The notes under the pieces were generated by a model. The model did not search any database. It was not told where the DNA came from and saw nothing but the letters and a program-made list of their open reading frames with translations. Below are positions 5,281 through 63,331 of a stretch of 64,000 bases of DNA, piece by piece. The DNA lies in the NCBI GenBank assembly GCA_963806705.1, contig CAWDZE010000007.1:25037-89036 (forward strand). Reading direction: 5' to 3'. The DNA is from Vicinamibacteria bacterium (GTDB lineage Bacteria > Acidobacteriota > Vicinamibacteria > Vicinamibacterales > JAENWD01). Position 1 is the first letter of the stretch. Every line of letters starts with the position of its first letter. The translations under genes and the position numbers were made by a program.

Positions 5281-6221
5281 ATCGTTCCGCGCTGCAGGTG
5301 CTGGGCGCGCCGGCGGGCACCGCCGCGCCGTCGGCGGCCGACGTGCGCGCGTGGCCGGGCGTCGCGGAGGCCGTCGTCCTGGCCACCTGCCACCGCACGG
5401 AGATCTACCTCGTCGCCCACGACGTCAGCCTGGGCCTGCGCAGCGTCAGTCACGCCGACCTCCCCGCCGCTCACCACCTGTTGCGGGTCGCCTGCGGCCT
5501 CGACTCGCCCCTCCTGGGTGATGGCCAGATTCTCGGTCAGGTGCGCCGCGCCTATCTCGCCGCGCGCCGGGCCGGCGCCACGGGGCCGTGGCTCAATCGG
5601 CTCTTCGAGACGGCGCTGCACGCCGGCAAGCGGGTGCGTCACCACACCGACCTTGGACGCGGCGCGACGACGACGGCGGCGGCGGCAGTGGGGCTGGCCG
5701 AGCACCTGGCGGGAGGTCTGGCCGGACGGCACGTGCTGGTCGTCGGCGCGGGCGAGACCGCGGCGCTGGCGGCGCGGCATGCCGCGCACCGGCGCCCTGC
5801 GCAACTCGTGATCGCCAACCGGACGCTTGCGCGCGCCGAGGCCGTGGCAGCCAGGGTCCAGGGCGTCGCGATCGGTCTCGACGATCTCCGCGCCGCGCTG
5901 GCCGATGCCGACGTCGCCATCACCGCGACCTCCGCGCCCGGCGCGGTGATTCACGCCGCGCCGCTCGGCGCGCTGATGGCGGCGCGCGGCTGGCGGCCGC
6001 TGGTCGCGGTTGATCTTGCCGTGCCGGGCGACATCGAGCCGGCGTGCGGCGCGGTTGCCGGCGTCACGCGCGTCGGCCTGGAACGCGTGGAGGCGGAGGC
6101 GGCGACGGACCGGATCACGCGCGCCGCGGCGGTGCCGGCAGCCGAAGCGATCGCCTCTGAGGCCCTGCGCGCGTTCCGCGCCTGGAGCGAGCGGCGCGCT
6201 GCGTACGAGTCAGCAGCCTGA
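5265..6221 (+). CDS. hemA: Glutamyl-tRNA reductase (short form, about 318 aa)
   Basis: C-terminal third of the 887-aa ORF 3558..6221. Active-site region LATCHRTEIY, GDGQILGQV and NADPH site VVGAGETAAL. The start (ATG 5265) is uncertain and overlaps the sulfite reductase stop region. Confidence 0.7.
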   Translation: MRGPLDRSALQVLGAPAGTAAPSAADVRAWPGVAEAVVLATCHRTEIYLVAHDVSLGLRSVSHADLPAAHHLLRVACGLDSPLLGDGQILGQVRRAYLAARRAGATGPWLNRLFETALHAGKRVRHHTDLGRGATTTAAAAVGLAEHLAGGLAGRHVLVVGAGETAALAARHAAHRRPAQLVIANRTLARAEAVAARVQGVAIGLDDLRAALADADVAITATSAPGAVIHAAPLGALMAARGWRPLVAVDLAVPGDIEPACGAVAGVTRVGLERVEAEAATDRITRAAAVPAAEAIASEALRAFRAWSERRAAYESAA

Positions 6222-51190: not shown

Positions 51191-51423
51191 ATGTGCGCTG
51201 CGATGCCCTGTGGCTCGCCGGTCGGGCCGGCCGAGGATGTCGACGAGACCGTCGATGACGAGGAAACCACCGAGGTGAACGAGGACGACGAGGACGAGGA
51301 CGAGGACGAGGACGAAGAAGAGAGAAAGACGAGGACGATGACGAGGAAAAAGACGAGGACGATGACGAGGAAAAAGACGGTGACGAGGACGTCGACGACG
51401 AGGACGAGCCGCCGGCGCGCTAG
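51191..51423 (+). other. Possible hyper-acidic D/E-rich micro-ORF (needs a frame change at about 51322); may be non-coding low-complexity DNA
   Basis: The ATG frame reads ...DVDETVDDEETTEVNEDDEDEDEDEDEEE. A second frame continues KDEDDDEEKDEDDDEEKDGDEDVDDEDEPPAR* to the TAG at 51421. GAC/GAG/GAA trinucleotide repeats. Confidence 0.2.
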
Positions 51424-51477: not shown

Positions 51478-52137
51478 ATGACGTGGATTCACGACCGATC
51501 GCTGACGCTGGTCATGATCGCGCTCTTCGCGGCCTGCGGGTGGGGCCAGCTCCTCACGGGGTGGGCGGAGTACAACCAGTCGCAGGCCGAGCACGGGCAG
51601 GCGGCCATCGCGCTGCTGTCATACCTGCGGGTGGGACATCCCTGGGAGGCGCTGTTCGAAAACTGGGAGAGCGAGTTCCTGCAGATGACCGCGTTTGTCA
51701 CGCTGACGGCGGTGCTCTACCAGAAGGGGTCGCCCGAGTCGCGCCGGCCGGGCGTGCGCGAGCTGGTGGACGCGGACCCGCGCGACTTCGCGCACCTCGA
51801 GGGGGTCCCGTGGCCCGTGAAGCGCGGCGGCTGGGTGCTGCGTGTCTACGAGCACTCCCTTGGGATCGCCTTGTTCCTGCTGTTCGTCGTGTCGTGGGCC
51901 GGGCACCTGGTGGGCGGGTGGCTCGCCTACGCCGGCGATCAGGCCTCGCACGGACAGCCCGGGCCCTCGCTGACCGGGTTCCTGGGATCGAGCCGGTTCT
52001 GGTTCGAGTCCTTCCAGAACTGGCAGAGCGAGTTCCTGTCGGTGGGCGTCATGGTGTGGCTGGCCGTCTACCTGCGGCAGCGCGGGTCTCCGGAGTCCAA
52101 GCCCGTCCATGCGGCGCACGACCAGACCGGGCGCTGA
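51478..52137 (+). CDS. DUF6766-like membrane protein with internal duplication
   Basis: Two halves each contain a TM helix plus ENWESEFLQM / QNWQSEFLSV and YQKGSPES / LRQRGSPES. Confidence 0.55.
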   Translation: MTWIHDRSLTLVMIALFAACGWGQLLTGWAEYNQSQAEHGQAAIALLSYLRVGHPWEALFENWESEFLQMTAFVTLTAVLYQKGSPESRRPGVRELVDADPRDFAHLEGVPWPVKRGGWVLRVYEHSLGIALFLLFVVSWAGHLVGGWLAYAGDQASHGQPGPSLTGFLGSSRFWFESFQNWQSEFLSVGVMVWLAVYLRQRGSPESKPVHAAHDQTGR

Positions 52138-52235
52138 GCCGCCGCAGCGCGGGGCGAACTCACATGTATTAAAGCGTCGATGGGCGAGGAGGGGCCGCCG
52201 GCTGAGCTGGATGGGCGGGAGTGTGGCGTCGATGT

Positions 52236-52484
52236 TCAGGCGAGCCGCTCGGCCGGTCCGATGGCCGTGGCGCCCGCGATGAGGAACGGGCCGGCCCCTT
52301 CGAGGGCTGTACCGATCTCATGCGTAATTTCCTCGGCGTGTGTTCGATCCCAATACTTCGCCAGAGCTGGCGGCACACGCTCGTCGTGGGTGCCGCACTC
52401 GTGCGTCCTGTGGATTTTGCGCCGTTTTTGCTGCGAAGAAGGGCGCCGGGCGTCGCGAAGCGGGGTCGTCGCCTTGAGAGCCAT
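52236..52484 (-). CDS. Hypothetical small protein (82 aa)
   Basis: MALKATTPL...HECGTHDERVPPALAKYWDRTHAEEITHEIG.... Non-repetitive composition. No family recognised. Confidence 0.3.
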   Translation of the reverse strand: MALKATTPLRDARRPSSQQKRRKIHRTHECGTHDERVPPALAKYWDRTHAEEITHEIGTALEGAGPFLIAGATAIGPAERLA

Positions 52485-52546
52485 GCTGGTAGCTCTTCCA
52501 AACCGCGTGCCATCTGCTCTCCGCGTGCGTGACACATCGACCCCCG

Positions 52547-53129
52547 CTATTTCGGCGTGAAGGACAACTCGAGGGTCACGCGCACGGGGACCGCTTGCCG
52601 AAGCGCCGGCCTGGCGTGAACCGCCACTTCCGCGCGGCCTCGAGCGCCTCCCGATCGAGACCATACACGCGGTCTTCCCGTTGGGCAGGACGACCAGCGC
52701 TATCCAGACCACGCCCTGAATGCCGCGTCCCAGCGCGTCGGCTGTGTACCTGGGCCGGACCTCCTTTTTGACCCGAGGCCCCTCGAGGTCGCCGCCGGGC
52801 GTGTTACTGGTAGACCCCGAGGCGTCTGGCTGCCGGGCGAGCGCCGGCAGCACCGGTGCGTACACGCCGATCGGAACAAGGCAAAGGAGGAGGCGTACGT
52901 CAAGCAACCTGCGCAATATGGCAAGACCTTCCCCACCCACTCCGAGATTTCGGTCAGCAGCGCGGAGGTGGGCGTCGAACCATCGGCGTCCCGTGCCGGC
53001 CGACCTCGAGTCCGCGCATCGTGGTGGCGGGTTCTTCAACGTCTCGACGAGGCGGCGGCTGCTGGGGACCGCGATGCCGTCGTCACGGCTGGCGGCGCCG
53101 AAGGTTGTGATGGCGGGGTGCCGCTCCAT
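52547..53129 (-). pseudogene. TonB-family protein remnant, at least 2 frame disruptions in the C-terminal domain
   Basis: PRVKKEVRPRYTADALGRGIQGVVWIALVVLPNGKT is followed, in shifted frames, by VYGLDREALEAARKWRFTPGRRFGK and VPVRVTLELSFTPK* (stop 52547-52549). Confidence 0.5.
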
Positions 53130-53199
53130 GAAATGCGGGTCCGTCGGCGTTAGCGGTCCGCTGAGGACGACCAGCGCCTTGATTGCCGCTGCGCCGCGC

Positions 53200-53470
53200 G
53201 AGCTAGATCGAGCTGTTCACGCCGCAGCTGGCGCCGCCGCCTGCCAGGCGCGGCGTCCACATCCTAGTCCTCGACTATCGCGGGTACGGCGACAGCCCGC
53301 GCGCCACGGGCGCCCCTGCCGGGCAGCAGGATCGAGACAAGATGCCGGCGACGTCGACGCGGCCTTTGCCGTGGATGAACGCGATGGCGGGGGAATCGAA
53401 ACAAGCCGCGCCGCGCTTCTGCGCAGACCTGCGATCGAATTATCGCTCCGGCGTCGATTCCCTTAGAGCA
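53200..53470 (+). pseudogene. Alpha/beta-hydrolase gene fragment
   Basis: GVHILVLDYRGYGDSP, then in another frame DAGDVDAAFAV.... In-frame stop upstream. The fragment ends where the low-GC segment begins. Confidence 0.35.
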
Positions 53471-53510
53471 TGCTCACGGGAGGTGCAGCCAACCAACACT
53501 GACAAAGCAC

Positions 53511-55907
53511 TTAAGATACCGCTCGGGTCGGGATGAACGAATCGAAGTCAAGTTCTGCACGGTCGAGCAATGACGCGAGCGTCGAACCGTCCTCTGGCAT
53601 GCGAACGACCGTTGCCTGCAGCCTCGGACCTAGACGTTCGCCCGAAGCCTTCACGACGCGCTCCCCGGCCGAACTGGCAGAAGCGCCGTCTCCGTCCGCA
53701 ATAAGGCAAACAAGTGTGCGTTCGTCGCACACAAAAACCAGGTCACCGCCGCGGAGATTTGAATAGACTTCGCCAACAACTTGCGACAGAGTGGACCGCA
53801 TACTTTCTATGCTAGGCGCGACGCGGAGTGCCAAAAGAAACAACGATCTAGTTGGCCGCCCCTCCAAGAACTGCCTCAAGTATTGATCTAAGTGCGGAGC
53901 AGCCAATTGGCCATCGAGAAGCAGTTGGCTGGCCTGTCCAACTGACCTTCGACGCCTCAGAATGGGCGCAAGATGACTGGCCACTCCTTCGATGATTTCG
54001 GTATGGCGTCGCGTGAATGCTTCGAGCTTCGATGCGTAAAGGGTCACCACTCCGACCAGAGTGTCGCCTCTCAGTATCGGAGCACTCAGACTGCTCAGAA
54101 AGTCCTTCAGCAGCGCCGAAGGTTCATCATCCGAATCTAACGCGCCCGGTGAGTTGACAACGGTTCTCTTATGAGCTGCGACCCACCCAGACAGGCCCTG
54201 ACCAACTTTGAGTCTGCGCCCTCTTAGGGCTGCGATAGTTTCTCCGTGAACAGTCTCACAGACGAGTTCGTCTATGCTCGACTCATAGACAAGCACCACG
54301 GCGGCGTCAAACGAGACCACAGAGCGGAGTCGATGCAGGACGAGGTCGGCCGTGTCCTGCCAAGGTCTATCAGTCGCATCAGCAAGTATCTGGTAAACGC
54401 GGAAGAGCGAAACTTCGTCTCCGGCATCATTCAGCCGTGTTACAGCGTTTCGCAGGTCGGACGAGCGAGAAATCCGTTCGAGTTGTGGCGGAGTGATATC
54501 AGTCTGAGCTGCTTCAGTCTGGGAAACCAGGACGGGTTGCAGCTTAATGAACGCGTCGACGACCATAGGATCGTACATGGTCGATCGCCGGTCCAACAAG
54601 ATTTGGGTGGCCGTCTCCGAACTAAGCCGTGGCCGATAAGGGCGATCGGATGTTAGTGCGTCAAAACAGTCAACAACTGACAGGATCCTCGCACCAATCG
54701 GAATATCGATGCCCGAAAGACCAGTGGGATAACCCGATCCATCCCAGTTTTCATGGTGGTGGCGCACGATTGGAACAACAGGGTAGGGAAATTCAATCGA
54801 GGACAAGATGTCCGCACCGATGCTCGCGTGAAGCTTCATTTTCTCAAACTCGGCTTCGGTGAGCTTTCCTGGCTTGTTCAAAATGTGCTCTGGAACTGCC
54901 AGCTTTCCCATGTCATGTAGTAGCGCCGACGCTTCTATCGCTTTCAGCTGTTCGTGGCAAACAATCCCGATGGATTTCGCAAGTTCGACAGCGAAAGTCT
55001 GAACGCGCCGAATGTGACCGTGTGTCACTTGATCCTTGGCGTCAATCGCCAGGGCCAGAGTTTCAATGGTCGACAAGTACAGAGAATTGACTTTAGTGAG
55101 ATGGCGATTTGTGTCTTCGACACGCGCCATCGGAATTTTGAACGTGAAATAGAGAATCAACAGAAGAGGAACAATCACGCTGAGGTACGCGGGGTCGATA
55201 TCGCGAGTGTAGACAACTAGGAGAGCGGATACCGAGGCGCCACCAAAGTAGTTGAGGGACAACCACAAAAAATCGCGTCTCCAAATGTCCCAGACGTTTC
55301 TCCCTGTTTCGAACCCTACCGCAATAGCGATCAACAGACTGTTGATTACGAAATGAAGAAACGTGAATGCCAGTAGTGGAAAGACTATCTGATTAATTCC
55401 TATTCGGCTTGATATTAGCGGCTTGACCTCAGGGAACAGGAAATATGCTTGGGCCGCAATCCATATCGAAAGCGCAGGAGCAGCCATGTTGAACGCAATG
55501 CGGTAGAGCTCCTTCCGCCGCCTTGCGAACCACGACGAAATAATGAGTCCGTCCAGGGCAACGATTGTTGTGCCCGCTGAAGGGCCGTAGAGCAAAACCG
55601 AAGTAAAGACGAAGGTTTCGGAGATCGAAATTGTCGCAGGGACTGAAGGAAGCTTGACAGTCGCTGACCCGCTTAGCAATGTAAGGACGGCAAGAATCAG
55701 CCAACGCGGCCCAAGGGACTCGCGCCACACTTCGGTAATGGAGTGGGCGATTACCGCCGTGCCAGCGATGGCTACGACGGCTACAAAGAATTGGCCACGT
55801 TGCGGCAGAAGTCTGTAGCTCATCGGATCGAACGACCAATACGGTATGGCCGTCGTCCGGACCTCGACCCCCGTATCCGAATCGCTATATCGGCCGTTTA
55901 GGTCCAA
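53511..55907 (-). CDS. Membrane-anchored HD-GYP phosphodiesterase with GAF and degenerate GGDEF-like C-terminal domains
   Basis: About 8 N-terminal TM helices. HD-GYP core HGHIRRV ... LLHDMGK ... HHENWDGSGYP. A GAF-like segment follows, then RGGDLVFVCDERTLVCLIADGD in place of GGDEF. Conspicuously AT-richer than its surroundings. Confidence 0.8.
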   Translation of the reverse strand: MDLNGRYSDSDTGVEVRTTAIPYWSFDPMSYRLLPQRGQFFVAVVAIAGTAVIAHSITEVWRESLGPRWLILAVLTLLSGSATVKLPSVPATISISETFVFTSVLLYGPSAGTTIVALDGLIISSWFARRRKELYRIAFNMAAPALSIWIAAQAYFLFPEVKPLISSRIGINQIVFPLLAFTFLHFVINSLLIAIAVGFETGRNVWDIWRRDFLWLSLNYFGGASVSALLVVYTRDIDPAYLSVIVPLLLILYFTFKIPMARVEDTNRHLTKVNSLYLSTIETLALAIDAKDQVTHGHIRRVQTFAVELAKSIGIVCHEQLKAIEASALLHDMGKLAVPEHILNKPGKLTEAEFEKMKLHASIGADILSSIEFPYPVVPIVRHHHENWDGSGYPTGLSGIDIPIGARILSVVDCFDALTSDRPYRPRLSSETATQILLDRRSTMYDPMVVDAFIKLQPVLVSQTEAAQTDITPPQLERISRSSDLRNAVTRLNDAGDEVSLFRVYQILADATDRPWQDTADLVLHRLRSVVSFDAAVVLVYESSIDELVCETVHGETIAALRGRRLKVGQGLSGWVAAHKRTVVNSPGALDSDDEPSALLKDFLSSLSAPILRGDTLVGVVTLYASKLEAFTRRHTEIIEGVASHLAPILRRRRSVGQASQLLLDGQLAAPHLDQYLRQFLEGRPTRSLFLLALRVAPSIESMRSTLSQVVGEVYSNLRGGDLVFVCDERTLVCLIADGDGASASSAGERVVKASGERLGPRLQATVVRMPEDGSTLASLLDRAELDFDSFIPTRAVS

Positions 55908-55911
55908 ACGA

Positions 55912-57868
55912 TTATTCTTGCCATCTCAACCCCTGTAAGTTGCTCATCAACAAGGCCGTGTGATTCGTGCTAGTTGCCCCACACCAGGCTGTCGGCGTTG
56001 CCCCACACCAGGCTGTCTGGCGTTGCCCCAGACCAGGCTGTCGGGCGTTGCCCCACACCAGGCTGTCGGCATTGCCCCACACCAGGCTGTCGGCATTGCC
56101 CCACACCAGGCTGTCGGCGTTGCCCCAGACCAGGCTGTCGGCGTTGCCCCACACCAGGCTGTCGGCGTTGCCCCACACCAGGCTGTCGGCGTTGCCCCAC
56201 ACCAGGCTGTCGGCGTTGCCCCAGACCAGGCTGTCGGCGTTGCCCCACACCAGGCTGTCGGCGTTGCCCCACACCAGGCTGTCGGCGTTGCCCCACACCA
56301 GGCTGTCGGCGTTGCCCCACACCAGGCTGTCGGCGTTGCCCCACACCAGGCTGTCGGCGTTGCCCCACACCAGGCTGTCGGCGTTGCCCCACACCAATGC
56401 GCCGCCCCATACCAGGCTCTCGGAACTGCCCCAAACTAGTGCGTTTGCTAGAACCAGGGTGCCGACGTCTGTTGCCCAAACTTGCAGTCGCAACTCCAGA
56501 GTTCACGATGGTTTCAGCCGCCACTCGAGTTGAGATCTGTGCAGGTCCGCTCTTGGCCAGTTGCACGGCCGCGGCCGCGTTCAGGCTCCCGGCGCCGGCG
56601 CAGGTCAATCCCTCTTCCTTCATGAACGTGCTGCTCATCTGCAGCGCGATCCGCACCTGCAGCGGGCTCAGCTTCGGGTTGGCTTCCAGCGCCAGCGCCA
56701 CCACGCCGCTCACCACGGCCGCCGCCTGGCTCGTCCCCGACATCTCGAACACCCCGTGCTGCCCGTTGCCCGAAATCAGCTTCTCCGGGAACCGCTTCGC
56801 CAGCGTGCTGCCCGGCGCGTAGAGCGAGTGCAGCCGCCGCCCCGGCGCCGCGATGTCCGGCTTCACCTGCTGATCGAACAGCGTCGGCCCGCAGGAGCTG
56901 AAGTCCGCGATGGTGTCGTCGCTCCGCCGTGCCGTCCCGTTGTCGTCAATCGCCCCCACCGTCAGCGCGTAGCGGCGAGTTGCCCGGCGACGTGATCGTG
57001 CGCAGCGCCCGCCGCCCGTCCTCGGTCTTGCCGTAGTTGCCCGCCGAGACCACCACCACCAGCCCGGCCTCGATACGCGCGCTTGACGGCCTGGCACAGC
57101 GGGTCGTCCACGTAGCTCTCAAACACCGGCCGGCCCAGCGACAGGTTGATCACCCGCAGGCCGAACTTCTCCTTGTGCTCGATTGCGAAGTCGATCGCCC
57201 TGATGACGTCGCTCGTCAGGCCCGAGCCGTCCGCCCCCAGCACCTTCAGGCTCACCAGCGACGCGTCCGGCGCCACCCCCTTGAACTCCGCGCTGTTGCC
57301 GGCGACCAGGCCCGCGATGTGCGTGCCGTGCCCCAGCTCGTCTTCGCCCGTGCCGTTCGACTTGGTGAAGTCCACGCTCGCCAGGAACTTCCTCGCCAGC
57401 GCCCTGTGTCTGGAGTAGCCGCTGTCGGCCAGCGCGACGACGATGCCGCGCCCGGTGACCGACCCCACGCCCGGCAGCGACCCGGCCCATGCCTGGTCGG
57501 CGCCGATGGCCTGGTTGGTCACGTCCGTCATCGACCGCACGAGCGTGTCGCCCGACAGGTGTCCGACGCCGCAGATCCGCGGCCAGCGCCCGCAGCTGCG
57601 CGCCGCTGGCCCGCAGCACCGCGCCGGTCTTCAGCCACTTGGCAATCAAAGCCCCGGTACGCGCCGCCACGGCTTTCACCGTCGGCGGGTCGGCCTGGAA
57701 GATCACGTCGCGCCCGGCGCCGGAGGCCACGGCGTCGGCGACGTCTTTCGACAGCTTCGCGCGCGGAGCGGCGATGGCCTCGGATGCGACCAGCAATGCC
57801 AGCAGCCCCAGCAGGAGCGCAAGCAACCCCAGCTCGCCAAAAGCCTTCCGTCGACCGCGCCTCGTCAT
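55912..57868 (-). pseudogene. Secreted S8 (subtilisin-family) peptidase with C-terminal octapeptide-repeat domain, multiple frame disruptions
   Basis: Signal peptide, then catalytic D (VALADSGY), H (HGTHIAG) and S (SGTSQAAAVVSG). Frame changes near 57570, 57075, 56975, 56480 and inside repeat units at about 56040 and 56015. GGAGG precedes the ATG at 57868. Confidence 0.8.
55973..56394 (-). repeat. About 17 near-identical 24-bp tandem repeats encoding ADSLVWGN, plus about 4 degenerate units up to about 56490
   Basis: The + strand unit is GTTGCCCCACACCAGGCTGTCGGC. Variants are cac/cag and gtt/att only. Units 2 and 3 (55997-56046) are 25 nt each. Confidence 0.95.
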
Positions 57869-58203: not shown

Positions 58204-58260
58204 ATTGAATCTGCGTAATTTCGCCCTCAATCTGCAATCTGCAATCTGCAATCTGCAATT
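58204..58260 (+). repeat. Heptamer array with a (TGCAATC)n core
   Basis: ctcaatc tgcaatc tgcaatc tgcaatc tgcaatt at 58226-58260, preceded by degenerate units (attgaat ctgcgtaatt). Confidence 0.85.
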
Positions 58261-58411
58261 CCCGCCGACTCGGCCAATCCATTGCCCAGCTACAGGCCTA
58301 AGTGCTTGGATCTGCACGGAAAATATTGCTGAGATCGAATTTGCGCAGGGCTCAGCCGTTCGAGATTGGGTGGCCAATCCGTTGGCCGGCCGGGCTAAGA
58401 TCCTGCCCACC

Positions 58412-60122
58412 ATGTTTCGCCGGGTTGCAGCCGTCGCCCTTGTGCTCGTTCTGGCCGGAATTGCCGTGTTTTTCTACAGCCGGACGGCCGTCGCGCCGGG
58501 CCGCAGGCCCGCGATGGCCCCGCCAGGGGCGAAGCCGGGCGGGACCCTCACGGCGACGCTCCGCGCGGAGCCGGCGACGTTCAACCGCTTCGTGTCCAAC
58601 GGCTTTCCCACCCACCTGGTGAGCCTGCTCACCGACGGCCGCCTGGTGCGGGTGAACCCGGAGACCGATCGGCCCGAGCCGTGGCTGGCCGAAAAGGTCA
58701 GCCGCACGGACACCGCCATCGACATCACGCTGCGGCCGGGCCTCCGCTTTTCCGACGGCACGCCTGCTCACGGCAGACGACGTGGTGTGGTCGCTGAAGG
58801 CGGCGTACGCGACGGCGCAGGGCGCGGTGGGAGACGGGCTGCGGCTCGACGGCGCGGAGATCCAGGCGCGCGCGGAGTCCCCGACGCGCGTCGTGCTGAC
58901 GCTGCCGGGCCCGTGGGCGACGGCGGACCGGCTGCTCGAGGCGCTGCCCATCTACCCGCGCGCGGTCGTCGAGCCGGCGCTCTCGTCGAACACGTTTGCC
59001 GCGGCGTGCTCGACCACGGCGCCCTGCCCGGGCCTGGGGCCGTTTGCCGTCGCGCGGTACGAGGCGGGCCAGCGCGTGGTCCTCGAGCGCAACCCGCACT
59101 ACTGGCGGACCGACGCGGCCGGCGCGAAGCTGCCGTACCTCGACAGCCTCGTGCTGGAGATCGTCCCGGACCAGAACGCGGAGCTGGTGCGGCTGACCGG
59201 CGGCCAGGCCGACGTGCTGCAGTCGGAGCTGCGGTCGGAAGACGTCCGCACGCTGCGCCCCGAGGCGGACGCGGGCAGAGTCGTCCTCACCGATGTCGGC
59301 CCCGGCCTCGATCGCCACATGCTGTGGTTCAACCTGGGGCCCGCGCCAATCGATCCGGCCAAGGCGTTCCTGCGGCAGGACGCGTTCCGCCAGGCCGTGT
59401 CGCTCGCCGTCGATCGCACCGGCTTTGCCAACACGGTGTTCCTCGGCGCGGCCACGGCGTCATCCGAGCCCGTGTCGGAGGCCAACAAGGCGTGGACCGT
59501 CGTCGATCTGCCGCGGCCCACCTACAATCCCGCGCAGGCCGCGACGCTGCTCGACGGCATCGCGCTGCGCGATCGGAACAACGACGGCATCCGCGAGGAC
59601 GCCTCGGGCCGTCCCGTGCGCTTCGCGGTGCTGGTGCAGTCGGGCATCACCGCGGCGCAGACGGCGATGGGCTTCGTGCGCGACGCGCTCGGCAACGTCG
59701 GCGTCGGCATGGACATCGTCGCGCTGGACATGGGCACGGTGATGGGCCAGTGGAAGCAGGGGCAGTACGACGCGGTGTTCCAGTACATCCAGGTGAGCGA
59801 CACCGATCCGGCCAGCAGCATGGACTTCTGGCTGTCGCGCGGCAGCTTCCACCTGTGGCATCCGGGGCAGGCCACGCCGGCGACGCCGTGGGAGGCGGAG
59901 ATCGATCGGCGCATGCTGCTGGTGGCATCCACGACGGACCAGGCCGCGCGCGTCAGGGAATTCGCGGAGGTGCAGCGGCTGATGCTGACGCACAACCCGG
60001 CGATCTGGTTCGCGGCGCCGCGCGTGTTCGTCGCCACGCGCCCGCGTGTCGGCGGGGTCGTGCCGCGGCTGACGCGGCCGCAGGTGCTGTGGAGGGCGGA
60101 CGAGCTCTACATCGTCAATTGA
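58412..60122 (+). pseudogene. ABC transporter substrate-binding protein (family 5, peptide/nickel type), orphan, frame disruption near 58765
   Basis: N-terminal TM anchor, then GGTLTATLRAEPATFN. RFSDGTP-g-LTADDVVWSLKAAY shows a 1-nt insertion. Also ERNPHYW. No permease or ATPase genes are adjacent. Confidence 0.75.
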
Positions 60123-60869: not shown

Positions 60870-61092
60870 GAGATCTCGGGCCGGCGTCGTGAAGAAAGGA
60901 ACCTGGAGCGTCGTTCGTGCTACTGTGTGCCCCCCGAGCGCATCAATGACAGTCGCTTATCGCGCCAAGTTGATTGGGCACCCGGCGGCAGGCGGCGCAA
61001 CCCTGACGCAACCGAAGCGCCCATCACGCGCATGCCGGCCCATCGCAGCAGCTGCCACCTCTCAATCGGACCCACCACCAACTGGCGATGCC

Positions 61093-61497
61093 ATGAATGA
61101 GGAAACAGTCGTAACCCGAGTGCTCGCTGACTATTACGACGCCTTCAGTACTCTCGAAGTCCATGCGGTGTTGCCGTACTTTCACGAGCCGTCGGTACTG
61201 ATTGGACCGCAAGGGGTGTTCGCCGCGCCCACCTACGCCGTCCTGACGACGGCTTTCACGCCCGCCATGGAAGGCCTCCGCGCCAGAGGCTTTGGTCGAA
61301 GTGAGCTGAGTGTGCGAAACGTTAAATCGTTGAGTGCCACGGCGACATTGGTTACAGGCGTTGCGGTTCGATACAAGGTGGACGGACAGGAGTTGGAGCG
61401 CGTAGGTGTCACGTACGTGCTGCACAAGGCAGACACTCGCTGGAAGATCGCTGTGTTGATTGTCAACGATGCCAATGAGGTCGCGTTGCATGAATGA
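61093..61497 (+). CDS. NTF2-fold hypothetical protein
   Basis: 134 aa. VLADYYDAFSTLEVHAVLPYFHEPSVLIGPQG ... TRWKIAVLIV. Family not resolved. Confidence 0.5.
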   Translation: MNEETVVTRVLADYYDAFSTLEVHAVLPYFHEPSVLIGPQGVFAAPTYAVLTTAFTPAMEGLRARGFGRSELSVRNVKSLSATATLVTGVAVRYKVDGQELERVGVTYVLHKADTRWKIAVLIVNDANEVALHE

Positions 61498-61772
61498 CCG
61501 AGGAACCGATCACGACAGACTCTCGCACAGGCCGCACTCTGACTTATCTTGGGTTCGTGGTTCGAATGACTATTACGGAGGGCGTCGTCCTGGTGCGAAC
61601 CTGTTCGCCGAGAGTGTGGTCGCGATGTCCGCTGTGAAGAAACCGATCCCCGCGATACCCCCGGCCATCGCTCACGTTTGAATCCGACGCCGACTCGCCG
61701 ACGGGACCACGATGGCCTCCAGGGCCACTGCGCTCGTCAGCTTCAAGCGCCTGTGCCACGGCTCCTTGCGCC

Positions 61773-62727
61773 TCACCGAAACAGTTCCTGGAATGCGGCC
61801 CGGACCATTAGCGGAGGGTCATGATCGATGCCCGCTGCAAGCCGGAGTCGCCATGCCAGCGGAACCCCCAGAGAATTCGCCTCCTCGGTGGCCGTCGCGA
61901 AGAAGCGCAAGCCTCGGGCGACGCGGTTCTGACCCTGGGCCATCGCATCGCTGGTATGTCGGGAATCGATCGCCTGCTCTTCCGGGACGGTCTGCGGTTC
62001 CGTGTCCTTATCTCCCAACAGAAGGACGAGGTCGCGTCCAAGCGCGCGAGCGAGTACGGCCGAATCCACCGCCGTGCCTCCCAACCCGTATGGGAAATCA
62101 ACGGAGCGCACCGGGAGCGCATATCGGCCCGGTGTCGACGCGATGGCGCGGCGAAAGCGAGCCCCGGGTACGAAGAGCACCAAGCGATGAACGAACTGTC
62201 CACCGGACGAGTGTCCCACGATGTCATATGTTGGACTCGTCAGTCCCGCGTGCTCTCGGACGAAGTCAAAGAGATGCTCGATTGCGAGGAAGGTCCACTC
62301 CCGCTCTGGAAGCAACTTGCCTCCTGAGTCCGTCATGTTGCCGAAGTCATACATCCATCGGCCGGGATAATGTTCTTGCGAGAATTCCGGAGCCAGGAGC
62401 ACGAAGCCGTGCTCTGGGGCGTACTGCTCGCCAATATCGCGTGCCTGACGGCCAGTGCGTGAGCTGCCGTGCATGAGAAACACGATCCGCATCGACGGAG
62501 CGAGCTGTGCTGGCCGGCAGGTACCAAACCGTGATGGGCCGCGCCGCGTTGCCACGGTCATCGCGGAAGACGAAACTGCCGAAGGTGTCGCCGAGGATCG
62601 TGGCCTGCTCAGCGGCAGCAGCCGGATTCCCAAACAGGACGCCCTTCGGCGAAGGCAAAGCGAGTTGCCACAGGAACACGCCGAGTCCAAGTGGTGCCAA
62701 CCTGCGCCGCAGAGTTCTTCGGTTCAC
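61773..62727 (-). pseudogene. Secreted alpha/beta hydrolase (esterase/depolymerase-like), frame disruption near 62500
   Basis: ORF 62347..62727 gives a signal peptide plus PITVWYLPAS. ORF 61773..62690 continues IVFLMHGSSRTG ... nucleophile elbow GHSSGG. Confidence 0.6.
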
Positions 62728-62863
62728 GCGCGTCAGCCTCTCCGTCCGTCGACGCTCGCGTCAGTCAGCGCGCCGCGTGGCGCGACGCCTGCGCCTCATT
62801 TTAGGAAGCGGCGTGACACGCGAGTGCGTCCGCTGCAACGCGTTGTTCGGCGGCCCGTGCCTC

Positions 62864-63331
62864 TCAGTGTCGGGCCGACGTCGTGTCACGAGCATCGGAG
62901 ATCAGGTGGCTCACTATCCGCCACTCATCCTGCTCCTTGACTAGGACGCGTTGGTGACTGGTCCTCCGCGTTCCAAGCTGCTCACCAGACGGCGATGTCT
63001 GTCCTTCCCTCTCGACCTGCGTGATGACGACCGCCACCGCGGGAGCGATGAAGCGGATCTCCTGCGCGACGACTCGGCTCCGGGCACCCATGACAAACGC
63101 CAGCCCGAATACTTCCTTCAACCTTGTGGCGATCGCATCGCGGCCGTGCTCGCGCATGCCAAAGGCGTTGATCCAGTCTGCGTCCACAGAATAGCCCTGT
63201 GCGGCCAACTCCGCGTTCTTGGTCCGCCAACCCTCATTCCATGTCTCGACAACAGCCTCGACTGCAGCGCGGTCGGCCCCTGCTGCGGAAGCTGGACCAG
63301 CCAACAGCAAGGCCAACACAATCGCACTCAT
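62864..63331 (-). CDS. SgcJ/EcaC-type (DUF4440, SnoaL-like) NTF2-fold protein with signal peptide
   Basis: MSAIVLALLLAGPASAA, then DRAAVEAVVETWNEGWRTKNAELAA ... WRIVSHLIS. Confidence 0.6.
   Translation of the reverse strand: MSAIVLALLLAGPASAAGADRAAVEAVVETWNEGWRTKNAELAAQGYSVDADWINAFGMREHGRDAIATRLKEVFGLAFVMGARSRVVAQEIRFIAPAVAVVITQVEREGQTSPSGEQLGTRRTSHQRVLVKEQDEWRIVSHLISDARDTTSARH

Follow-up and report, generated by a model that had tools for sequence, protein, structure and literature searches.

Atypical GC content is routinely read as the mark of a recent transfer. It is also known that regulators of GC-rich bacteria can be controlled by rare codons, as in the case of bldA and the TTA codons of Streptomyces. 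The degenerate GGDEF domains of PelD, PopA, and SgmT serve as receptors of cyclic di-GMP (c-di-GMP), which they bind via an RxxD inhibitory site (I-site). In the HD-GYP enzyme PmGH, Glu185 is a ligand of the third metal. In the ermCL leader, ribosome stalling exposes the ribosome-binding site of ermC (PMC5499644). In this study, I analyzed a stretch of 64,000 nucleotides of a Vicinamibacteria bacterium in the Acidobacteriota (assembly GCA_963806705.1, contig CAWDZE010000007.1, positions 25,037 to 89,036), hereafter called the window, in whose coordinates all positions are given. It contains an AT-rich gene for a membrane-bound HD-GYP sensor, which lies behind a gene for a secreted S8 peptidase. 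The original prediction for this gene, made from the letters of the window, was a recent horizontal acquisition. The results described below indicate that it is probably a resident gene, inherited vertically, whose AT-richness is a maintained equilibrium.

The low-GC segment comprises the coding sequence and a leader of 146 nt. Change points of the cumulative GC deviation place it at 53433 to 55975, and thus the abrupt borders originally set at about 53470 and 55972 were confirmed. The three G+C counts made by hand (25/60 at 55321, 28/60 at 54661, and 46/60 at 5701) are exact. The GC content is 0.538 in 53470-55972 and 0.683 in the remaining window, while the leader has a GC content of 0.537. 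In 1-kb steps, only 54-56 kb falls to 0.52-0.54, and the lowest value in 200-bp windows (0.46) was found at 55200-55499. Compared with the 228 other 2.3-kb windows (mean 0.684, sd 0.020, minimum 0.623), the gene has a z value of -7.1 for GC, and its tetranucleotide distance has a z value of +10.9. The GC content at third codon positions (GC3) is about 0.57-0.58 versus 0.80-0.92 in the other long open reading frames (ORFs) of the window, with 0.82-0.92 for its neighbors. Four-fold degenerate sites are used almost evenly in the gene (A.17, C.28, G.30, T.25), as against A.05, C.44, G.47, and T.05 in the host genes. The codons ATA, CTA, AGA, GTA, and CAA are enriched 6-30-fold (9-30-fold for the first four), and TTA occurs 2.6 times per 1000 codons versus 0.2 elsewhere. 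In GC, GC3, and tetranucleotide usage, the anomaly is thus real and sharp, and it lies far beyond the normal gene-to-gene range. A milder dip in GC (0.61-0.63 per kb) was seen at 61000-63000, where there is no clear long ORF of high GC3.

Is this composition shared by the relatives? A scan of one genome per species yielded 52 loci (labelled L001 on), and six further metagenomic contigs were recovered via the protein database. The close loci all belong to Acidobacteriota and are mostly labelled Vicinamibacteria or Vicinamibacterales; likewise, the best matches of the protein, which had been proposed as a check for an import, are all from Acidobacteriota. In about 20 of the scanned loci and the six metagenomic contigs, the orthologue has a GC content of 0.53-0.61 inside flanks of 0.64-0.73. 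The differences between gene and flanks range from -0.06 to -0.19, while the lowest value among 466 flank windows is -0.085. The AT-rich clade was sampled at 25 loci, which come from different genomes of the Vicinamibacteria type. Other orthologues form a second group of normal composition, with a GC3 of 0.85-0.95. A sister clade of seven loci (L013, L015, L019, L021, L024, L027, and L031) has the same pair of S8 and HD-GYP genes with a GC3 of 0.85-0.93, and encodes proteins of 664-665 residues that lack the GGDEF tail. This GC-normal sister clade can serve as a natural control with which to compare the AT-rich state. Several orthologues from metagenome-assembled genomes hold frame breaks, which may be assembly errors.

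In both the AT-rich and the GC-normal group, the gene immediately upstream of the HD-GYP gene, in the same orientation, is that of the S8 peptidase, and the pair is kept wherever a related locus extends far enough upstream. Thus, the presence or absence of the gene in related genomes, another check that had been suggested, gave a uniform answer: it stands behind the S8 gene in all 25 loci of the clade, and in its GC-normal form in the sister clade. Further upstream of the S8 gene, at least 11 loci of the AT-rich group have a divergent SBP_5/Opp cluster, as does the window. The downstream side of the HD-GYP gene is not conserved among the relatives. Pairwise protein identities of 0.49-0.89 for HD-GYP and 0.45-0.92 for S8 show the same block structure. 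In Mantel comparisons, HD-GYP correlates with S8 (r 0.79) and with SBP (r 0.69), each with p 5e-4, while the r value of S8 and SBP is 0.91. Neighbor-joining (NJ) trees, which are distance-based and were built for the HD-GYP and S8 genes only on tblastn-anchored alignments, divide into matching subclades, and each recovers the AT-rich clade as monophyletic. Neither a tRNA nor an Rfam match at gathering thresholds was found at the locus. No mobility domain was found by Pfam in the neighboring ORFs, the only flanking direct or inverted repeats are short chance pairs, and no plasmid or phage record covers at least 80% of the protein.

Synonymous sites tell how long the composition has lasted. At codons with identical amino acids, the third-base identity at four-fold sites is 0.22-0.35 within the AT-rich clade for all but three closely related pairs, while 0.25-0.28 is expected at random. 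Even between the window and L053, whose proteins are 86% identical, it is only 0.37. Since a high protein identity is maintained over nearly saturated synonymous sites, the gene must be under strong purifying selection. At the same time, GC3 stays at 0.56-0.70 in every AT-rich lineage. A steady composition over saturated sites means that the AT-richness is maintained at equilibrium, rather than being the trace of an import that has not yet been ameliorated. Together with the synteny and the co-divergence, this makes it likely that the gene is a resident of the Vicinamibacteria-type acidobacterium and not an island.

The AT pressure is not confined to codon choice but reaches all codon positions and the leader. 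Over the 610 residues shared by the two clades, the GC content at first positions (GC1) is.60 in the AT-rich clade and.69 in the GC-normal clade, and that at second positions (GC2) is.43 and.48, respectively. The proteins are shifted as well: residues of the GARP class make up.277 and.342, and those of the FYMINK class.210 and.159, in the same order. In four metagenomic loci, the leader has a GC content of 0.48-0.54, while the other intergenic DNA of those loci has 0.58-0.72. In a meta-profile of 13 loci, the GC content descends from about 0.70 to 0.48 within the final 100 bases ahead of the start codon, remains at 0.48-0.59 throughout the gene, and recovers only slowly downstream.

Alignment of the leaders exposed a mini-ORF (an upstream ORF, or uORF) within the otherwise unalignable spacer. 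In the window, it reads ATG GCA AGA ATA ATC GTT TGG ACC TAA, or MARIIVWT followed by the stop codon, on the minus strand (55898-55924). Each of the 25 AT-rich loci has a matching mini-ORF, and the 15 GC-normal or outgroup loci all lack one. The matches follow the pattern M-x(1-5)-[ILV]-[IF]-[VILA]-W-[TSDG]-x(0-2)-stop, are 7-11 codons long, and start with GTG in two loci. The pattern has this sole match in the six frames of the 64-kb window, and was not met in 20,000 shuffled spacers. A nearly invariant T at the second codon positions and variation at the third are what a hydrophobic peptide should show if it is translated. A Shine-Dalgarno-like GGGG (55930-55933, minus strand) lies seven bases before the start, and nearly all loci have GGAG, GGGG, or GAGG 5-10 nt before it. 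In the GC-normal clade, the distance from the S8 stop codon to the HD-GYP start is only 14-27 nt and there is no mini-ORF; thus, the leader, the mini-ORF, and the AT-rich gene body seem to have arisen together.

The mini-ORF peptide resembles one unit of the repeat in the C-terminal tail of the neighboring S8 peptidase. In the window, this tail is encoded by a 24-bp tandem array (55973-56396, 17.6 copies, 97% identical) which is translated into (GNADSLVW)n. Every S8 orthologue (L001-L058) has 2-23 copies of [S/T/V]-[IL]-[VIL]-W-[GT]-[NDST] with variable spacers, and the tail repeat is not covered by any Pfam or NCBIfam model. The units read GNADSLVW in the window and SILWGS, VIVWGD, TIIWGD, or SIVWTD elsewhere. 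The mini-ORF tracks these lineage variants: ILW occurs with ILW, IIW with IIW, and W-T with W-T.

Behind the mini-ORF, a CCGATA box (55888-55893, minus strand) is invariant in 13 aligned leaders. It lies 4-8 nt past the mini-ORF stop in most leaders and about 20-35 nt past it in a few, and matches no assignable promoter spacing. In the window, a hairpin ending at the start codon (55824-55861, minus strand) is predicted by both the minimum free energy and the centroid folds. Most leaders fold into a hairpin, which reaches a z value of -2 or lower in 7 of 18 loci. Terminator-like hairpins with U-tracts are seen in L054, L057, L058, and L028, while hairpins enclosing the AUG are seen in the group of L002, L004, L003, L010, and L012.

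The gene is located at 53511-55823 on the minus strand, stop codon included, and encodes 770 amino acids. The length of 798 residues originally given for the protein is that of the listed ORF, which reaches a TTG at 55907. The closest homologues have 765-770 residues and begin with MSYRLL, so the ATG at 55823 is the likely start; the TTG extension overlaps the conserved mini-ORF in another frame. A look-up of the exact protein sequence returned no record.

As judged from its motifs and structure models, the protein is probably a membrane sensor in which an intact HD-GYP domain is followed by a GAF domain and then by a GGDEF domain that is dead as a catalyst. About eight transmembrane (TM) helices had been predicted, and hydropathy and AlphaFold2 (AF2) give seven or eight within residues 10-232 or so (55128-55796, minus strand). 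The AF2 helices span residues 8-35, 39-51, 67-100, 106-127, 147-173, 177-205, and 212-266. In the full-length model (pLDDT 76), the last TM helix runs on as a long helix into the HD-GYP domain. This N-terminal domain is MASE9-like; it scores 22.6 bits with MASE9 (PF20972), against a cut-off of 24.3, and many close homologues have a recorded PF20972 match. The HD-GYP domain (residues 259-421; 54561-55049, minus strand) matches HD_5 (PF13487) with 129 bits (cut-off 27.2) and HD (PF01966) with 76 bits. Its nearest solved structures are the HD-GYP enzymes 5z7c, 4mcw, and 4r8z. As had been read from the motif HHENWDGSGYP, the domain is intact: all His and Asp metal ligands are present, and 107 family members show no variation at H270, H303, D304, H332, H356, H357, D385, and G364-Y365-P366. 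In place of Glu185 of PmGH, there is Val266 here and Val or Ile in all 107 members, which suggests a two-metal subtype that is still inside the family. The GAF domain (residues 488-622; 53958-54362, minus strand), originally described as GAF-like, exceeds the thresholds of both Pfam models, namely GAF_2 (52.2 bits, cut-off 28.6) and GAF (40 bits, cut-off 22.4).

The C-terminal domain (residues 639-762 or so; 53538-53909, minus strand) was identified as a degenerate GGDEF domain by profile and fold, while the window protein alone has no match to the Pfam GGDEF model (PF00990). The C-terminal profile of the family matches solved GGDEF domains (4urs with an E value of 8.5e-15, and more than 40 GGDEF entries in the PDB). 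An AF2 model of residues 620-770 has a pLDDT of 82.6, and the best 50 matches listed in a Foldseek search of the PDB are all GGDEF domains, with 4urg_B at the top (E value 1.4e-7, TM-score 0.67). Relatives of about 48% identity do carry PF00990 and read ...RDQLTGLPN...LLLIDVDNL..IN..HGR..GD.V...LRAADLLFRYGSDEFVALL. In the subclade of the window, the segment around the first metal-binding Asp (IDVDNL..IN..HGR..GD) is deleted, and the aligned stretch is LRGGDLVFVCDERTLVCLI. It had been proposed that RGGDLVF stands in place of GGDEF. However, alignment with the less degenerate relatives puts RGGD (R691-D694; 53742-53753, minus strand) on the RxxD I-site, where it aligns with RrsD of 4urs, and puts DERTL (53712-53726, minus strand) at the position of the GGDEF catalytic motif, five residues after the I-site; the family profile matches the solved domains in this very register. 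R691 is kept in 104, D694 in all, and R722 in 99 of the 107 family members. R722 (53658-53660) lies 31 residues past R691, which I take to be the same spacing as that of R359 and R390 in the PleD I-site (R359/D362/R390).

Since the catalytic motif and the preceding segment for substrate and metal binding are lost, the domain is predicted not to be a cyclase; what is conserved in this dead GGDEF fold is a putative I-site for c-di-GMP. The original reading of the protein as a phosphodiesterase with a possible allosteric pseudo-cyclase module therefore holds by homology and fold, apart from the register of the motif. Outgroup homologues from Acidobacteriota have a full GGDEF domain of the AGDEF type (Pfam E values of 1e-43 to 1e-46), and thus TM-HD-GYP-GAF-GGDEF is the ancestral architecture. 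The enzyme itself is an ordinary member of the HD-GYP family whose domain combination is unusual but explicable. It may hydrolyze c-di-GMP in response to a signal sensed in the membrane and to a ligand of the GAF domain, and c-di-GMP bound at the I-site of the dead GGDEF domain would then feed the substrate level back on the activity.

Why is this gene AT-rich? The leading explanation, which I hold only tentatively, is a gate on expression at the level of translation or mRNA. The gate would be made up of the AT-rich body with its rare codons, the mini-ORF, and the hairpin that follows it. Ribosomes translating the mini-ORF, or stalling on it, would decide whether the main start codon is opened, in analogy to the gating of ermC by ermCL, and a weakly structured, slowly translated message would keep the level of the phosphodiesterase low unless the gate is open. 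Several observations weigh against this gate. The amino acid shift, the AT-rich leader, and the slow recovery of GC downstream all point to a force acting on DNA, and the near-flat four-fold sites are also what a simple escape from a GC-raising force would leave. The hairpin of the window is no more stable than those of shuffled sequences (z 0.05), and RNAalifold found no conserved structure across the subclades, but only an invariant 4-bp pairing without covariation. There is also some likeness between the Ile-Ile codons and a -10 hexamer, and the mini-ORF is overlapped by a match CTTACA-17-AATAAT. The frame breaks in the S8 gene of the window speak against a function in this one genome.

Some other causes and elements were considered and rejected. 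A sigma-70 promoter in place of the mini-ORF amounts to one 9/12 match, where 1.3 are expected in shuffled sequences, and its -35 element is not conserved while the Shine-Dalgarno sequence, the start, and the stop are. Transcription-associated deamination was discarded because the A/T asymmetry at four-fold sites is inconsistent across the orthologues. An excess of C over G that might load Rho averages +0.09 in the first third of the mRNA (GC-normal clade, +0.03; S8, -0.095); it is small and to be expected for a membrane segment, and therefore decides little.

A functionless escape is a weaker candidate for the cause, and a rather doubtful one. It assumes that the locus, perhaps by being a cold spot of recombination, has slipped from the force that raises GC elsewhere (GC-biased conversion of genes, or selection), and that it now rests near the mutational equilibrium. 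The nearly flat base usage at four-fold sites would follow directly, and the synonymous divergence per amino acid change does exceed that of the GC-normal clade. The drift of the amino acid composition toward AT-rich codons, the gradual recovery of GC downstream, and AT runs fewer than the composition predicts are also in line with an escape. Such an escape, however, must be specific to one gene and stable over a deep clade. Its 5' border lies within a few hundred bases of a gene with a GC3 of 0.82-0.91, ordinary intergenic DNA of the same loci is GC-richer than this coding sequence, and the change coincides with a new conserved leader.

It is unlikely that the AT-rich DNA is kept as a target for a nucleoid protein of the Lsr2, MvaT, or H-NS type, which would silence the gene until a signal arrives. 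To my knowledge, no silencer of this type has been described in Acidobacteriota. The composition is suitable, with a segment of 46% AT in a genome of about 32% AT; in Mycobacterium tuberculosis (about 34% AT), the binding of Lsr2 rises steeply above about 38% AT (PMC8476142). The pressure on all codon positions and on the leader would fit as well, and AT-only runs of at least five bases are found at 6.9 per kb in the segment versus 1.0 per kb elsewhere. However, the 17 runs of the segment are a depletion when compared with mononucleotide shuffles (27.7 +/- 4.0). AT tracts thus do not appear to be selected, since there are fewer of them than the composition predicts. Nor are there conserved DNA islands inside the gene: in a search for embedded nucleic-acid elements, the synonymous identity over 25 codons peaked at 0.47 versus 0.38 overall, which is no island of constraint.

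Similarly low is the probability that a lower-GC acidobacterial homologue with a GGDEF tail replaced the resident gene at the base of the clade, and that its composition merely persisted. The AT-richness, the leader with the mini-ORF, and the retained GGDEF-type tail do appear together at the base of the clade, and one outgroup, L033, has the full architecture and an upstream S8 gene in a genome with a GC content of 0.52. On the other hand, persistence needs a force, for the four-fold sites have been fully turned over and GC3 is nevertheless 0.56-0.70 everywhere. In addition, the NJ tree places the AT-rich clade with the GC-normal copies of Vicinamibacteria and not with L033. As an origin, such a replacement does not exclude the gate, the escape, or the silencer, and is compatible with each of them.

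There is a slighter chance still that a single circuit based on a peptide joins the S8 tail, the mini-ORF, and the sensor. In that case, the Trp-repeat unit would itself act as a peptide, whether by being released as a signal or by arresting the ribosome, and would set the expression or the activity of the HD-GYP sensor; the AT-richness would be the selected substrate of the gate. If true, such a circuit would couple proteolysis outside the cell to c-di-GMP in a new way, and would be an example from nature of a gene that selection keeps far away from the GC content of its genome.

Finally, the recent horizontal acquisition of the original prediction, by which a low-GC gene was lately inserted between the peptidase gene and a hydrolase remnant and has not been ameliorated, has the extreme contrast, the sharp borders, the non-syntenic downstream side with its decayed genes, and the transposases downstream in one relative in its favor, but it is refuted on a ground that had been named in advance, namely by syntenic orthologues. 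In 25 loci, which belong to different species, these have an unchanged position and an equally AT-rich composition; they co-diverge with GC-rich neighbors, and their synonymous sites are saturated. With no tRNA, integrase, flanking repeat, or plasmid or phage copy either, this reading has hardly any probability left.

The secreted S8 peptidase gene with the (GNADSLVW)n tail was located at 55970-57868 on the minus strand by tblastn and DNA alignment to the intact orthologue of L053, in which Peptidase_S8 scores 170 bits. Compared with L053, the gene of the window has at least five insertions of a single base, which spread it over three frames. The segments with the catalytic Asp, His, and Ser are still 81-83% identical and free of stop codons, and the adjacent AT-rich gene of 2.3 kb has none of these frame breaks. 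The S8 gene of the window is thus either a very young pseudogene or the product of a run of assembly errors. The divergent gene beyond it, at 58656-60122 on the plus strand, matches SBP_bac_5 (Opp-type) in Pfam and is the syntenic anchor of the AT-rich clade. Its first 100 codons or so seem to lie in another frame, for the phase of GC3 shifts near 58.7 kb (about 58380-58800); its orthologues have 574-583 residues versus 489 in the window, so a frameshift is possible. Between the divergent S8 and SBP genes, there is a perfect 7-bp tandem repeat, CAATCTG x 4.6, at 58228-58259.

On the downstream side, no intact ORF with a Pfam match was found in 52137-53510. A remnant resembling TonB_C extends over two minus-strand frames of this region (VKKEVRPRYTADALGRGIQGVVW... 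/ LDREALEAARKWRFTPG). The fragment of an alpha/beta-hydrolase that had been proposed to end there has no Pfam match among the listed ORFs. What stands of it is a hydrolase-like N-terminal fragment on the plus strand, based on the motif HILVLDYRGYGDS recognized by eye near 53.3 kb. Further downstream, a GAC/GAG-rich 6/24-bp tandem repeat (51279-51407) encodes a run of Asp and Glu just upstream of a DUF6766 gene (51478-52137). In one subclade, the AT-rich HD-GYP gene is followed, at a distance between a few hundred bases and about 1.3 kb, by a gene for a sigma-54-dependent activator (13069-15072 in L054, 9819-11285 in L057, and 9694-11148 in L058); the activator gene is absent at the equivalent position of the window.

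How does this locus compare with the known systems? A literature search returned nothing substantive linking Vicinamibacteria and c-di-GMP signaling, with a single match that names both in passing. The protein shares its metal ligands and the GYP motif with the HD-GYP enzymes PmGH (4MCW), PA4781 (4R8Z), and V-cGAP3 (5Z7C). It differs from PmGH in the Val or Ile that replaces Glu185, and presumably resembles PA4781 in the two-metal site suggested here. Unlike these enzymes, it has an input domain of 7-8 TM helices instead of a receiver domain, the HD-GYP domain is followed by the GAF and the dead GGDEF domain, and its substrate may be either c-di-GMP or cyclic GMP-AMP (cGAMP). As in PelD, PopA, and SgmT, the GGDEF fold has lost its catalytic motif while the RxxD and a downstream Arg are conserved. 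Unlike them, it is fused to an HD-GYP hydrolase, so that the putative receptor would sense the substrate of its own enzyme, and the segment of the first metal-binding Asp is deleted.

The leader resembles that of ermCL-ermC in having a short ORF preceded by a Shine-Dalgarno sequence, conservation at the peptide level, and then a hairpin which covers the main start in several loci. It differs in that a signaling enzyme is encoded downstream, and in that the peptide has only 7-11 residues and ends 1-3 residues past the invariant Trp; the hairpin of the window itself is without statistical support. As with bldA and the TTA codons, a regulatory gene in a high-GC genome contains codons that are almost absent elsewhere. 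Here, however, the whole gene is recoded and the amino acid composition is shifted too, and I know of no dedicated tRNA for its rare codons.

Receptors with a degenerate GGDEF I-site and leader-peptide attenuators are thus known kinds. What is not ordinary is a strongly constrained, vertically inherited gene that, throughout a deep clade, is held about 15 points lower in GC than its genome (30 points at GC3), and a mini-ORF that arrived with the AT-rich state and whose peptide mimics the Trp repeat of the neighboring peptidase. The mini-ORF is a candidate for a new leader-peptide control of c-di-GMP signaling in abundant but poorly studied soil bacteria. Since the gene begins about 150 bases from a same-strand gene with a GC3 of about 0.9, the locus may also be useful for asking what holds bacterial GC high, be it selection, biased gene conversion, or mutation. 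Like genomic islands, it has an atypical GC, GC3, and tetranucleotide composition within sharp borders. Unlike them, it is syntenic, co-diverging, compositionally stable across a deep clade, and devoid of mobility features; a signature usually ascribed to transfer here marks a strongly conserved gene of vertical descent, which is a caution for island-finding methods.

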